From: a virus | Lineage: Duplodnaviria > Heunggongvirae > Uroviricota > Caudoviricetes | Virus record (IMG/VR): IMGVR_UViG_2939177367_000003 | Span: 1-41,062 of that record | Length of the DNA stretch: 41,062 bases | Direction: 5' to 3' (one strand) | Part shown: positions 2,986-7,396 of the stretch, one piece after another | Layout of the letters: every line of letters starts with the position of its first letter | How positions within the stretch are numbered: position 1 is the stretch's first letter | Notes under the pieces: generated by a model | What the model was told of the DNA's origin: nothing | Databases searched by the model: none | The model's input: only the letters and a program-made list of their open reading frames with translations | Position numbers and translations under genes: made by a program

Positions 2986-4020
2986 ATGAGAAATGAAAAA
3001 ATTGATTTTTTAAGATTTCTTGGACTATCACTTATTGTGCTGGCTCATGTTAATCCGCCGTTAATAATTTCACAACTTAGAAATTTTGATGTACCATTAA
3101 TGTTTTTAGTTATGGGAATGTCTTTTTTCATAACTGAGTCAAGGCATACATCAACCTTTAACTACATAGCATCTAGGTTTAAACGGCTTGTAATTCCAAC
3201 ATGGTTTTTTTTCTCGTGTTTTTACATTGTTAGCGAGCTAATCTGGATGTATCAGGGACATTCAGAGTTTAAATACAGTGCAGGAACAATTGCTGCAACT
3301 TTTGCTTTATCTACCGGCATAGGTTATGTATGGGTAATAAGAATTTTTTTTAGTGTATCTATTTTAGCCATACTAACACCCAAATCAATATTAAACGCTT
3401 CCATTTATAAAATAACGTTCCTATCATTCGGCTTTATTATATTAAATACGTATTTCCTATCTTCTTTTTACGAATCTTTAGATGTAAATATAAGAGCTCT
3501 TGAAATAGGAACATTTATATCAAGCACCGCGGTTTATTTATGCGTATTTCTTATTGGATATAAGATATTACAGGAAGACAGAAATTCTATAATATTTATC
3601 TTATTTATAAGCGGTGTTATTTTTACAGTTGTGATGTCGTATTTGATGACACGAGAGGGTCACTTCATTCCTACTCAAGAAGATAAATATCCACCTGGAA
3701 TTTACTATATTTCATTTGCAATATTTATGTCTTTAGCATTTTTTGTGACTTCAGAAAAACTCATAAAAGCATTAAGCTACTCAAAATTATGGGGAATAGT
3801 GATGTTCATTTCATCAAATTCAATCTGGATTTATTTATGGCATATTGCTTTCATCGTTAACATAATAAATTTAAATATTAATTTCATGTTTAAATATATA
3901 CTTGTTTACTCATTTTCTATTGCTATTGTATTTATACAGGTTAAGCTAATTAAAAGCATAACCTCCACAATCAAAGATGATAGAAAGTCAAAGATTTTGA
4001 ATCAAATTTTTACAGGTTAA
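2986..4020 (+). CDS. Integral-membrane acyltransferase (acyltransferase-3 family), putative O-antigen/LPS acetyltransferase
   Basis: N-terminal KIDFLRFLGLSLIVLAHV motif (IDxLRxxxxxxxxxH), about 10 predicted transmembrane segments, very AT-rich gene with AT-rich upstream region; position next to int/gtrA is typical for serotype-conversion genes. Confidence 0.5.
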   Translation: MRNEKIDFLRFLGLSLIVLAHVNPPLIISQLRNFDVPLMFLVMGMSFFITESRHTSTFNYIASRFKRLVIPTWFFFSCFYIVSELIWMYQGHSEFKYSAGTIAATFALSTGIGYVWVIRIFFSVSILAILTPKSILNASIYKITFLSFGFIILNTYFLSSFYESLDVNIRALEIGTFISSTAVYLCVFLIGYKILQEDRNSIIFILFISGVIFTVVMSYLMTREGHFIPTQEDKYPPGIYYISFAIFMSLAFFVTSEKLIKALSYSKLWGIVMFISSNSIWIYLWHIAFIVNIINLNINFMFKYILVYSFSIAIVFIQVKLIKSITSTIKDDRKSKILNQIFTG

Positions 4021-4027
4021 CTAATTA

Positions 4028-4058
4028 GTGATTCGGCGTGATAATTACGCCGAATCAC
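4028..4058 (+). terminator. Stem-loop immediately after the acyltransferase stop
   Basis: Perfect 12-bp inverted repeat GTGATTCGGCGT / ACGCCGAATCAC with 7-nt loop; T-tract weak. Confidence 0.45.
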
Positions 4059-4449
4059 TTCTTAAGAAATATTTGTAAGAATATATTCTCTCCACAGGAA
4101 TATTTGAATAATATGCTATCAATTAATTAAATAACTTACTTTTAGCATGAATAACCCAAGTAAAGAACATCTCCTGAGGAAGTAGCTTTTCAGAATCCCC
4201 CCTACAAGGTTGAGGAATTCCAAGAAAACAAGACAGGCATAGAGTTTTGTGATCTACTGATTGCGCTAACTAATTCAATGAGATCACCTCTATGGCTGCC
4301 CGTAAAGTATGCCAGACTTTTTTCCATAATGATTTAGCTTCCACTCATCAGTATCGACAAAATGCCATTATTGATTCCGCTGCTGCTTAAGTCGGGGCGC
4401 ATATCTTTCTCTTAGCAGCATTGGTCGGCATTTACCCGGCCCTGCTCGA

Positions 4450-4845
4450 GTGAAAGATAAAATAAAACGCGTTGACCGTCTGCTGGGTAATACGCGACTT
4501 CATAATGATATCCCTCTGATATTCAAAAATATTACCTCCATGATGATAAATAAACTGTCGTGGTGTGTTATCGCTGTTGGCGGGAGCTGTTACCCTTTTC
4601 AGGAATACCATTTCCTTCGGGCCAGCCTCCTCTGCGACGGTCGCGCTATCCCCCTGATGAGTCAGGTATTCCAGTCAAAAAATAAAATAACGAGGCGGCT
4701 GAAATCGCTTTTCTGGATGCGCTTTCCGCGACCATTTCTCCCCGGACTCGTGTTGTTATTGTTACTGTTGCCGGTTTTCAAAGTGCATGGTTCCGTAATA
4801 TCAAATAACTGGGGTGGGATTTTATTGGCCGTATCAGGGGGGTAA
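4450..4845 (+). pseudogene. IS4-family (IS10-like) transposase fragment
   Basis: Translation KIKRVDRLLGNTRLH...LRASLLCDGR parallels IS10 transposase residues ~55-180 (NIKRIDRLLGNRHLH...LRASVALHGR); N- and C-terminal parts missing or frameshifted. Confidence 0.5.
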
Positions 4846-4966
4846 TGAAGTTGAGGCTGGATAGTGACAAAGATTAATGCTGGACATAAATATGTGTAGG
4901 GGGTGTTCAGAGGCAAAATACCTGGGGATCAGAACCCTGTGTAACTTCGCATTTTTTCTGGGTTAA

Positions 4967-5100
4967 TTGGCGCGCAATTCTGGGCGGGGAGAGCGCAACC
5001 AAAAAGCCAAGAATTGGCCGCTAACTTATTAGTCTCATGCTGATGATTTGCCCTCAAAAAATCAGCTCATATCCTGCACAGTTCAACGTATTGCGTTGTA
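4967..5100 (+). pseudogene. Possible degenerate 3' remnant of a Din-family serine invertase (gin/pin-like)
   Basis: Frame-broken translation G*LARNSGRGER ... LPSKNQLISCTVQRIAL resembles invertase C-terminus GLAAARNKGRIGGR ... IPRKQVALIYDVALSTL; this is where gin/pin sits in Mu and e14. Weak, by eye only. Confidence 0.25.
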
Positions 5101-5175
5101 AATCGGTGTTCTGGTCATTTGTTGATACACGTACATAGCCAATAAGCATGGTAGATCTCCCTGACAAAAGCAGGA

Positions 5176-5697
5176 ATGATGTCATTTGCTCGTTATTTCT
5201 GCACTTTCATAAACGTTGGTTTGGGAGAAGGTTCGGCATTACCCGTTGGTGTGCCTGTTCCGTGGCCTTCCGCCACTCCGCCAACAGGCTGGCTGAAATG
5301 CAACGGTGCGGCATTTTCTGCTGAAGAATACCCGGAACTGGCAAAGGCTTACCCGACAAATAAATTGCCTGATTTACGCGGTGAGTTTATTCGTGGCTGG
5401 GATGACGGGAGAGGCATTGACCCAGGAAGGATTCTATTGGCTTCACAGGAGCATGCAATGCAAAACGTCACTGGTTCAATAGGGAAAATTCAGCTTTTTA
5501 GAGATTTAGTTATCAGTGGTCCATTTCGTCATAACGGTAATAACTATCTGACTACTGGATTAACAGCGGTTACAGGCCAAAATAGTGGAGGGAGTGGTGT
5601 CACAACATTTGATTTCGATATGTCAAGGGTGGCAAATACCGCCAATGAAACTCGCCCGGTGAACGTTGCATTTAACTACATTGTGAGGGCTGCATAA
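5176..5697 (+). CDS. Alternative tail-fibre C-terminal (receptor-binding) cassette with tail-collar motif; lacks its own N-terminal constant part
   Basis: Tail-collar-like motif WLKCNGAAFSAEEYPELAKAY...LPDLRGEFIRGWDDGRGIDPGR; reading frame passes through the left crossover site at codons GLGE; no tail-fibre N-terminus upstream. Confidence 0.6.
   Translation: MMSFARYFCTFINVGLGEGSALPVGVPVPWPSATPPTGWLKCNGAAFSAEEYPELAKAYPTNKLPDLRGEFIRGWDDGRGIDPGRILLASQEHAMQNVTGSIGKIQLFRDLVISGPFRHNGNNYLTTGLTAVTGQNSGGSGVTTFDFDMSRVANTANETRPVNVAFNYIVRAA
5204..5229. repeat. hix/gix-like recombination site, left boundary of invertible tail-fibre segment
   Basis: Reverse complement TTCTCCCAAACCAACGTTTATGAAAG shares a 15-nt core (CTTCTCCCAAACCAA) with the site at 7094-7119, in inverted orientation; resembles hixL TTCTTGAAAACCAAGGTTTTTGATAA. 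Confidence 0.6.
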
Positions 5698-6299
5698 TGG
5701 ATAACGCTGTATTAAATAGCGAGTTTATTGCTACGAAGGCAGGGGATATTACTGTTTATAACTATGATGGTGAAACTCGGGAATATATTTCCTCTTCAAA
5801 TGAATATCTTGCCATTGGTGTCGGTATCCCTGCGCATTCCTGTTTAGACGCCCCTGGTGCATATAAGGATGGTTATACAATTTGCCGCTCTGTGGATTTA
5901 AAATCATGGGAATATGTGCCAGACCATCGAGGAGAAACTGTTTACAGCACTGAAACAGGAGAATCGGAAGGAATCACAGCTCTGGGTGATTACCCTGAAA
6001 ATACAACCACTATCTCCCCGTTAACGCCATATGATAAATGGGATGGTGAGAAATGGGTGACAGATACCGAGGCACAGCATAGCGCCGCAGTAGACGCGGC
6101 AGAAGCACAGCGTCAGTCACTGATTGATGCTGCAATGGTTTCCATTAGTCTGATTCAGTTGAAATTGCAGGCCGGGCGGAAGCTGACGCAGGCAGAAACC
6201 ACCCGGCTTAACGCTGTGCTGGATTATATTGACGCGTTGACGGCAACAGATACCAGCACCGCGCCGGATGTCATCTGGCCTGAACTGCCGGAGGCGTAG
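5697..6299 (+). CDS. Tail fibre assembly protein (Tfa), partner of the + strand cassette
   Basis: Tfa-like translation (MDNAVLNSEFIATKAGDITVYNYDGETREY...); convergent with second tfa; C-terminal ...DALTATDTSTAPDVIWPELPEA. Confidence 0.75.
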   Translation: MDNAVLNSEFIATKAGDITVYNYDGETREYISSSNEYLAIGVGIPAHSCLDAPGAYKDGYTICRSVDLKSWEYVPDHRGETVYSTETGESEGITALGDYPENTTTISPLTPYDKWDGEKWVTDTEAQHSAAVDAAEAQRQSLIDAAMVSISLIQLKLQAGRKLTQAETTRLNAVLDYIDALTATDTSTAPDVIWPELPEA

Positions 6300-6669
6300 G
6301 CCATTCAATATCTGGCGTACTGGAAGTAGCGACCAGTTCCAGTGCGTCCAGATAATCCATCCACAAATTATATTGCGCCAGTTCCTCACCTTTCAGACGA
6401 CCAATAGCCGCTTTACCGGGCCACTGTTTACTGTTCATGTATTCGTTAGCCTGGTTAATTAGTAGCTGTCTTTCTGATTCAGTAATTTCAATAAGCTCTT
6501 CATGCGTGGGTGGAGGAATATCAGCCCACGCAGGCAGCGCATCATCTCCGGCAATACGGACTTTTCCTTGTGGCGGTTCAGCCATAAACTCACTGACAAT
6601 ATTTTGATTCACTTCTTTCACATCTGATAAATCCCATCCCTCTGATTTATATTTATCAATCATATCCAC
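6271..6669 (-). CDS. Tail fibre assembly protein (Tfa), partner of the expressed tail fibre
   Basis: Tfa-like C-terminal half (...LWMDYLDALELVATSSTPDIEWPTPP); immediately downstream of tail fibre gene. Confidence 0.75.
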   Translation of the reverse strand: MDMIDKYKSEGWDLSDVKEVNQNIVSEFMAEPPQGKVRIAGDDALPAWADIPPPTHEELIEITESERQLLINQANEYMNSKQWPGKAAIGRLKGEELAQYNLWMDYLDALELVATSSTPDIEWPTPPAVQAR

Positions 6670-6733
6670 AGGGAAAAAGCATTATGTCTGGCACTATAAA
6701 CATATTCGTTCATATAAATCATCCTGAATAAAA

Positions 6734-7396
6734 TTACTCGCCAACAGTCCACCAACAGTAATTCATGGTAACAGTTGGACTTGTCGAGGTTGTTCTAAAG
6801 GCAGAATAAAACCCTGTTAACCCTGGCTCTTCAGTTGTCATCATAAAACCACGACCGCTCCCGGCAGTTGAACCACCATCACCAGAATGTGAAAGCAAGA
6901 CAATATCAGCTTTTTTAGGGAAAGGTATATTAAATTCTACCCGTAGTATCTGACTCGCAAGCGTAGGAGACACACGCCCACGACCATATTGCAGGATTTT
7001 CCCGTTGGGTAATTTCATCCATCCATCACCACTGGCAAAAGAGGCCATGTCCGGTATCTGATTTTCCCCTGTTCCCACATTTCGTTTCGCCGCTTCTCCC
7101 AAACCAAGGTTTTCGAGAGCTGTTTTCACCGTGCCATCCGATTTTATATCGCCAAACGGATTCTTGCGGCTTAACAGCAGCGCACGAAGCGCGGTAAGCA
7201 GCTGGTCATGCCGCCCCTTCTCCAGGCTGGCACCGGATGCCTCCACAACGCTGCAAAGCTCCTCCTGCAACATGTCAAAGTAGTCATCATCCAGATCGGT
7301 GGCAGGCGTGCCAGTCTGGGGGTTACCACGGGTAAAACCGTTCTTACCCGCGCCGAACTTATCCTTCTGCGCGGTTTTCGTGTCTATACGATGCAT
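6734..7396 (-). CDS. Tail fibre protein (constant N-terminus plus currently expressed variable C-terminus)
   Basis: N-terminal [46 protein letters not shown] motif typical of Mu/e14-type side tail fibres; right crossover site lies inside the gene at codons [11 protein letters not shown]. Confidence 0.7.
7094..7119. repeat. hix/gix-like recombination site, right boundary of invertible segment (inside tail fibre gene)
   Basis: TTCTCCCAAACCAAGGTTTTCGAGAG; about 20/26 identity to Hin hixL; inverted partner at 5204-5229. Confidence 0.6.

Follow-up and report, generated by a model that had tools for sequence, protein, structure and literature searches.

A P-segment-type tail-fibre switch with a truncated invertase gene in an Escherichia coli prophage, and a candidate enzyme for its inversion in trans

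The DNA analysed here, called the window, is the whole stretch of 41,062 nucleotides (nt) of IMG/VR record IMGVR_UViG_2939177367_000003. The element of interest within it is a segment of 1,890 base pairs (bp), lying at 5217-7106 between the centres of two crossover sites, which carries the variable end of a tail-fibre gene. We are close to certain that this is an invertible switch of the P-segment type, belonging to the Din/Pin family, and that its invertase gene is truncated. The segment is bounded by a pair of 26-bp sites in inverted orientation, its inversion exchanges one fibre end for another in frame, the neighbouring invertase gene stops after codon 31, and an intact invertase is present in a P2-like prophage of the same chromosome. 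Because the cognate pin gene has been destroyed, the element cannot flip itself. Since the cis elements look intact, and a close enzyme with near-identical cognate sites occurs in the same cell, the segment may still be able to flip in trans. On balance we favour the view that it does so through the P2-like invertase, probably at a low rate. The account as a whole, comprising a pix-type switch, a truncated invertase and inversion in trans, is held with the same modest preference.

The 2.6 kb around the fibre region are 100% identical to the chromosome of E. coli strain 210221272, isolated from swine cecum (assembly GCF_001735705.1, chromosome NZ_CP016404.1), which is referred to below as the source chromosome. 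The strongest inverted repeat of the region has arms at 5204-5230 and 7093-7119, each of 27 nt, which are 85% complementary and separated by 1,862 nt. An exact run of 15 nt, CTTCTCCCAAACCAA, is common to both arms. An earlier description of this DNA, made from the sequence alone and referred to here as the first-pass annotation, had proposed two inverted 26-bp sites with a 15-nt core, and this is what the repeat contains. A 19-nt core, TTCTCCCAAACCAASGTTT, is found exactly twice in the 41-kb window when up to three mismatches are allowed, against an expectation of 0.00 from 100 shuffles. The site proximal to the invertase gene is at 5204-5229 on the minus strand (minus-strand reading TTCTCCCAAACCAACGTTTATGAAAG, with the central AA at 5216/5217), and the site within the fibre gene is at 7094-7119 on the plus strand (TTCTCCCAAACCAAGGTTTTCGAGAG, with the central AA at 7106/7107). 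Read in the same relative orientation, both begin with the left half-site TTCTCCCAAACC, followed by the central AA.

The first-pass annotation had also suggested alignment to the known crossover sites of the Din family, and for this the K-12 e14 and Mu G regions were searched with the right site of the window. The right site (7094-7119) agrees at 26 of 26 positions with the K-12 e14 P-segment site in stfP, and also with the corresponding site of strain NWU_1. The left site (5204-5229) agrees at 25 of 26 positions with the e14 site beside pinE. Both match Mu gix at 18 of 26 positions, and the best matches in Mu coincide with the annotated boundaries of the G segment. Given the near-complete agreement with the e14 sites, and the placing of the Mu matches on the G-segment boundaries, the two sequences are Din-family pix sites and not mere look-alikes. 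Agreement with hixL is 19-20 of 26 (20/26 for the right site), and serves as a lead only.

The two sites enclose two alternative fibre ends in opposite orientations, each paired with a tfa gene. The expressed tail fibre has 220 residues (6734-7396, minus strand). Its constant N-terminal part is encoded at 7107-7396 and its variable, gp53-like C-terminal part at 6734-7106. It matches Pfam Gp53-like_C with E = 3e-8, and is labelled 'gp53-like domain-containing protein' by the Prokaryotic Genome Annotation Pipeline (PGAP); its residues 1-109 are 95% identical to StfP of K-12. The tfa paired with it is at 6271-6713 on the minus strand (Pfam Caudo_TAP, E = 3e-28). On the plus strand, at 5176-5697, is a silent tail-collar cassette, an alternative fibre C-terminus of 173 residues made up of a 14-residue leader open reading frame (ORF) and 156 residues after the motif GLGE. 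Residues 14-173 of this cassette are 98.75% identical to the C-terminus of the H fibre expressed by the P2-like prophage. Its own tfa, of 200 residues, is at 5697-6299 on the plus strand (Pfam Caudo_TAP, E = 1e-32), and is 87.5% identical to TfaE of K-12 and 99.5% identical to the tfa of the P2-like prophage. The ORFs and the Pfam domains thus agree with the reading of the first-pass annotation, in which the variable half of the expressed fibre and its tfa lie on the minus strand, and an alternative collar cassette with a tfa on the plus strand. The same annotation placed both sites at GLGE codons. In the translations these codons do coincide with the two sites, the expressed fibre reading NLGLGEAAK there and the plus-strand ORF NVGLGEGSA.

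The segment was inverted in silico by cutting at the central dinucleotides and reversing 5217-7106. This gives an in-frame fibre of 256 residues, in which the constant 101 residues are followed by GSALPVGVPVPWP and the remainder of the cassette; the Collar domain is detected in this fused protein with E = 4.5e-15. An annotated protein of strain WEM25, WP_190811870.1, has the same length as the fusion and is 96.5% identical to it in an ungapped alignment, the WEM25 cassette being joined directly to the same constant region. This bears out the proposal that inversion swaps the receptor-binding domain in frame. The reciprocal product in silico has 137 residues and consists of the 14-residue leader and the gp53-like end. 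It is worth adding that it is analogous in construction to StfE2 of K-12, a chimeric product from the stfE leader which is functional in that strain and is reported to block adsorption of phage T2 (PMC12529663).

Both orientations of the segment occur in nature. A 500-bp junction of the inverted form, generated in silico, is contiguous in 514 genomes. Related E. coli genomes carry the segment as in the window in 61 cases and inverted in 69. The inverted count was made with the whole 2.4-kb region, required to be collinear with at least 80% coverage, and since the opposite orientation cannot give 80% coverage on one strand, the two counts separate the two states. Orientation also differs at the same locus within strain series: CH458 is as the window, whereas CH423 and CH425 are inverted, and NWU_1 is as the window, whereas NWU_3 and NWU_4 are inverted. 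In all of these strains pinE is intact. The switch family is therefore active when its invertase is present. Inversion of the e14 P segment has already been demonstrated experimentally (PMC4272514, PMC12529663).

The plus-strand ORF at 5176-5697 and its tfa might instead be independent, expressed genes, the inverted repeat being simply fibre coding sequence that the two frames share. PGAP does give 5179-5697 an ATG of its own and calls it a complete 'phage tail protein', StfE of K-12 and the P2-like prophage have conserved a similar leader ORF, and the K-12 product made from the stfE leader is reported to be functional (PMC12529663). However, just 14 residues stand ahead of GLGE in the cassette, where the fused fibre has about 100 and the P2-like H protein 349, and this leaves the cassette without a baseplate-attachment domain. 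The first-pass annotation had named a promoter of its own and a complete N-terminus as the marks of an independent gene; besides the short leader, a search upstream of the plus-strand cassette gave no promoter-like match. The repeats are moreover the sites whose inversion has been observed experimentally in e14 (PMC12529663, PMC4272514), and relatives show both orientations. We regard independent genes as very improbable, and return to the switch and its missing enzyme.

The pin gene beside the left site is a stub at 5057-5149 on the minus strand, containing the first 31 codons (MLIGYVRVSTNDQNTDLQRNTLNCAGYELIF) and running into a stop at 5054-5056. The 93 nt retained are in frame, and 28 of the 31 residues are identical to PinE. 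PinE of NWU_1 aligns to the window at residues 1-31 alone (5149-5057), and DNA homology to intact relatives begins at 5057. Because homology stops at codon 31 and the stub is in frame, pin is truncated and not frame-broken. The first-pass annotation had described insertion sequence (IS) debris together with a frame-broken invertase remnant; the debris and the lack of an intact invertase stand, whereas the remnant proves to be a clean truncation after codon 31. The window was searched by tblastn with NWU_1 PinE for the rest of pin or for a second invertase, and nothing was found past codon 31. An apparent extension of the alignment to PinE residue 49 crosses two stops and was rejected as noise. 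The stub scores 21.2 bits against Pfam Resolvase, below the cut-off of 23.3, and PGAP annotates it as a pseudogene without a C-terminus.

On the far side of the stub are 117 bp of joining DNA (4940-5056), a deletion or rearrangement scar between the stub and an IS fragment. This fragment, at approximately 4207-4939 on the plus strand, is ISSfl9-like (IS4 family) and represents the first ~730 bp of the element. It contains a frameshift and an internal stop, and PGAP annotates it as a pseudogene. Over query positions 58-790 its identity to the ISSfl9-family copies of other genomes is 92-93%. A distant-mode blastn search of 5,425 other complete E. coli genomes gave no match to the 117 bp. The event that destroyed pin is IS-associated, yet it went beyond a simple insertion. 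A close relative of this prophage, at another integration site in strain C11 (NZ_CP010133.1; stretch L006, 2814-3080), also has a truncated recombinase beside its invertible segment. It seems that this prophage family has lost the invertase more than once.

For recombination, Din invertases require an enhancer in cis to which Fis is bound. Fis sites were sought with a degenerate consensus, KNNYRNNWNNYRNNM, reported by Huebner and Arber in 1989. A recombinational enhancer is predicted at 5065-5127 on the minus strand, formed by two 15-bp matches to the Fis consensus, a proximal one at 5113-5127 and a distal one at 5065-5079, with their centres 48 bp apart. The window agrees exactly with the consensus at both places; the consensus is loose and gives many hits. 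Five regions were aligned from the crossover site into the gene: that of the window, those of Mu gin and the P2-like invertase, and those of two pinE genes. Each has the pair of exact matches with a spacing of 48 bp. In the window, Mu gin and both pinE regions, the ATG is 67 bp from the crossover centre and the two matches lie at distances of 96.5 and 144.5 bp from it. The P2-like region has 1 bp more upstream of the ATG, so that the ATG is at 68 bp and the matches are at 97.5 and 145.5 bp. The predicted geometry fits that of the Hin enhancer, which is 65 bp long with a Fis site at each end, lies in the N-terminal coding region, and has its proximal Fis site about 100 bp away from hixL (PMC3798978, PMC2724282). 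Because both Fis cores lie inside the 93 nt of pin that are retained, the whole predicted enhancer would have survived in the stub, with 8 bp to spare. The truncation removed the enzyme and spared both sites together with this 63-bp element, whose function as an enhancer is a prediction.

The first-pass annotation had left two options, a switch that is locked or one that is driven in trans by an invertase elsewhere in the genome, and had proposed a genome search for Din-family invertases. The search used a chimeric query against the chromosome only, in which a strain-unique anchor (the acyltransferase gene of the window) was combined with pinE codons 32-184, with or without pinQ. In the source chromosome the anchor alone gave one place and the anchor with the pinE part gave three, and the addition of pinQ gave no increase. 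It follows from these counts that the chromosome has two pinE-like loci and no pinQ/R-like locus. The source chromosome was then walked by synteny offsets against K-12. The e14 element is absent from it, icd being directly followed by iraM, and the Rac and Qin prophages are absent from their sites. The walk found no invertase at icd (e14), dacD/sbcB, Rac, Qin, zwf, the asn-tRNA islands, the leuZ island, the thrW lambdoid prophage, argU or att-lambda. The first of the two loci is a 168-bp remnant near ypjA/ssrA (NZ_CP016404.1, 3,528,870-3,529,037; stretch L010, 28871-29041). It is an internal fragment of a Pin-like recombinase, covering residues 38-94 with 68% identity, and we take it to be the equivalent of the pinH pseudogene of K-12.

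The second locus is a complete P2-like prophage between rcdA and ybjL (1,592,927-1,627,704). Its invertase, encoded by BBP24_RS08015, is intact, with 188 residues and full Resolvase and HTH_7 domains, and is 86.7% identical to PinE and 74.6% identical to Gin. The search therefore yielded one intact Pin-family enzyme. The site adjoining its gene, TTCTCCCAAACCAACGTTTATGAAAA, agrees at 25 of 26 positions with the left site of the window, and the second site of this prophage has the left half and the central AA in common with the first. In total the chromosome carries four pix-type sites, in two prophages about 1.6 Mb apart. The P2-like prophage has an invertible fibre segment of its own (stretch L024, 24365-27916), in which the collar cassette is expressed and a different gp53-like cassette is silent. 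The choice between locked and driven in trans can accordingly be sharpened: an invertase elsewhere in the genome exists, it has a near-identical cognate site, and the predicted cis enhancer is retained in the window.

The two prophages also share a long stretch of sequence. Window positions 5207-6577 match the P2-like prophage over 1,371 bp with 95.5% identity and no gaps, and the P2-like prophage expresses the collar cassette and tfa which the window carries in silent form (98.75% and 99.5% identical at the amino acid level). Such similarity could suggest that the segment changes by RecA-dependent homologous exchange with the P2-like cassette, instead of by site-specific inversion. Exchange of this kind would, however, give megabase rearrangements or gene conversion and not an in-frame swap at 26-bp sites, and it leaves unexplained both the conserved pair of sites and the orientation polymorphism in relatives. 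Of all the explanations considered, it is the one to which we give least credence.

We therefore retain site-specific inversion and propose the following mechanism. If the two 26-bp pix sites recombined, 1.89 kb would be flipped, and the gp53-like receptor-binding end and its tfa would give way to the tail-collar end with its own tfa, in frame at GLGE. An IS-associated rearrangement has destroyed the cognate pin past codon 31. The cis parts that appear to survive are the two sites, with their matching central AA, and the predicted Fis enhancer in the remaining 93 nt of pin. On this segment the invertase of the P2-like prophage could act in trans.

The enzymes Gin, Cin, Pin and Hin are interchangeable, and Fin of the P2-like prophage Fels-2 is reported to invert the Salmonella H segment (Kutsukake 2006). 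PinQ of the Qin prophage inverts the e14 P segment (PMC12529663). In both cases the invertase of one prophage acts on another element. The P2-like candidate described here resembles the Fels-2 case, its action in trans being presumed. It is 87% identical to the enzyme that was lost, whereas PinQ is only 38% identical to PinE. The target also differs: the window lost its invertase by natural decay, whereas the K-12 pinE case was engineered.

The P segment of e14 has the same gene order as the window, ymfQ-stfP-tfaP-tfaE-stfE-pinE, so that the comparison proposed in the first-pass annotation shows the two to be collinear. Besides the agreement of the sites (26/26 and 25/26), the two share 95% identity over 109 residues in the constant N-terminus of the fibre, 87.5% identity in TfaE, and a distance of 67 bp from site centre to ATG. 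They differ in the invertase gene, which e14 has whole and the window prophage only as far as codon 31, and in that the window prophage is complete and located at argW, whereas e14 is a remnant at icd. The variable ends differ as well: past residue 109 the gp53-like end of the window has no relation to StfP, and identity between the collar cassette and StfE is 60%.

The same logic is found in the Mu G segment with Gin, and also in the P1 C segment with Cin and the Salmonella H segment with Hin, where 26-bp inverted sites allow an in-frame swap of the fibre C-terminus and its chaperone. In Mu-type systems, as in the window, the invertase gene lies just outside one site; the enhancer, which in the window is a predicted one, lies in the 5' end of the gene. 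Gin of Mu is 78% identical to PinE, and has the Fis-consensus pair at the same positions. The window differs from Mu in its sites (18/26), in the length of the segment (1.9 kb as against 3 kb) and in being without a functional invertase in cis. Fibre segments of P2-like prophages of the pro483 type, including the one in this strain, have the same collar cassette, tfa, GLGE junction and invertase-proximal site, and a gp53-like alternative cassette. The P2-like prophage differs from the window in that its constant part is a 349-residue P2 H N-terminus, its collar cassette is in the expressed position, and its invertase is intact. A fixed fibre of the type found in Shigella SfIV was considered as a model and rejected, as it is without the collar cassette and the sites.

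The alternative that has to be taken most seriously is that the segment is a locked fossil. According to this view pin is gone, the segment is frozen in the gp53-like state and decaying, and the sites are intact only because the truncation is recent. Pin has after all been reduced to a stub of 31 codons, there are IS5/ISKpn26 and ISSfl9-like insertions nearby and a cut gtrA, and the relative in strain C11 also has a truncated recombinase, so that decay of this gene recurs. The tfa of the expressed fibre (6271-6713) is frameshifted. By DNA alignment it has lost 1 nt from a run of A, with five at 6674-6678 compared with six in three relatives, and the frame shifts near codon 14. Three-frame translation, compared with the 147-residue tfa of NWU_1, shows that an ORF of 130-132 residues is left, starting at 6663/6669, and PGAP calls the shorter protein of 130 residues. 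This homopolymer loss may be real decay or a sequencing error. Other features do not fit a fossil: both sites are unmutated relative to the active e14 sites, both predicted Fis cores are kept, the ORFs of the silent cassette and its tfa are unbroken and 98.8-99.5% identical to expressed copies, and an invertase with 87% identity and a 25/26 cognate site is present in the same cell. We consider a locked fossil possible, although doubtful.

Inversion in trans by the P2-like enzyme is therefore still favoured here, and several points weigh against it. In K-12, deletion of pinE leaves the P segment locked although pinQ and pinR are present (PMC12529663), which means that inversion in trans at native levels of expression can fail; the deletion may possibly have taken the enhancer as well. 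The frameshifted tfa of the expressed fibre hints at a general decay of the module. The distal Fis-like core is 8 bp from the break (5056/5057) and 2 bases off that of pinE, and its outer flank is now foreign DNA. The junction of IS and pin is carried by this one genome alone among complete E. coli genomes. Finally, flipping in this strain and expression of the P2-like invertase in the lysogen are both things that we infer.

The whole window is one prophage at the argW tRNA gene, flanked by yfdC and dsdC, and its position 1 is the start of intS. From the integrase end the order is intS, gtrA cut by the IS5-like element ISKpn26, an acyltransferase gene, the IS4-family pseudogene, the 93-bp 'hypothetical' pseudogene and the fibre region. 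These are followed by genes for a Mu-like baseplate (YmfQ/gp48, gp47, gp46, V), for tape measure, sheath and tube, and for an HK97-type head, then by lambdoid genes for lysis, replication and immunity, and finally by torI. The host element, which combines lambdoid early genes with a Mu-like baseplate, is an SfIV/e14-like prophage, and apart from the accessory region next to intS it looks complete. Within that region, gtrA (1301-2650) is interrupted after about 53 codons by ISKpn26, whose transposase is at 1594-2574 on the minus strand, and there is no annotated gtrB or gtrC downstream of the insertion. The glucosylation part of the serotype-conversion module thus appears to be lost, and the acyltransferase kept. 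The acyltransferase gene (2986-4020; Acyl_transf_3, GC fraction 0.29) occupies the O-antigen-modification slot of the prophage. Among 5,426 complete E. coli genomes this one alone has it, and the matches that follow in rank are 72-75% identical over 150 bp or less. Immediately 3' of its stop codon, at 4022-4064, is a near-perfect 21-nt hairpin with a 1-nt loop, probably a terminator or the end of a repeat element.

The kind of switch described here has long been known, as the Pin/P-segment system of the Din family; what is presented is a decayed and orphaned example for which a plausible partner in trans has been identified. Knowledge of invertible tail-fibre segments and their 26-bp sites, of the Fis enhancer and of cross-complementation among Din enzymes dates back to the 1980s. 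That the invertase of another prophage inverts the e14 P segment in trans was published in 2025 (PMC12529663). The finding consequently carries little weight for basic biology. There is a lesson for annotation, in that ORFs called 'phage tail protein' beside such sites are silent cassettes, and the orientation given in an assembly is a snapshot. A further suggestion is that the orphan segment has been kept as a working switch, with receptor specificity set by the invertase of an unrelated P2-like prophage, or with a flip that protects the host against phage in the manner of PinQ and StfE2. We think this improbable. If it were true, the receptor specificity of one prophage would be governed by a co-resident P2-like prophage carrying the same cassette. 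The segment is in any case a clean natural example of how a switch decays, the enzyme being the first to go while the cis sites and the silent cassette are still intact, and it indicates that a single receptor-binding cassette, and probably a single invertase, can be common to two unrelated prophages of one cell.

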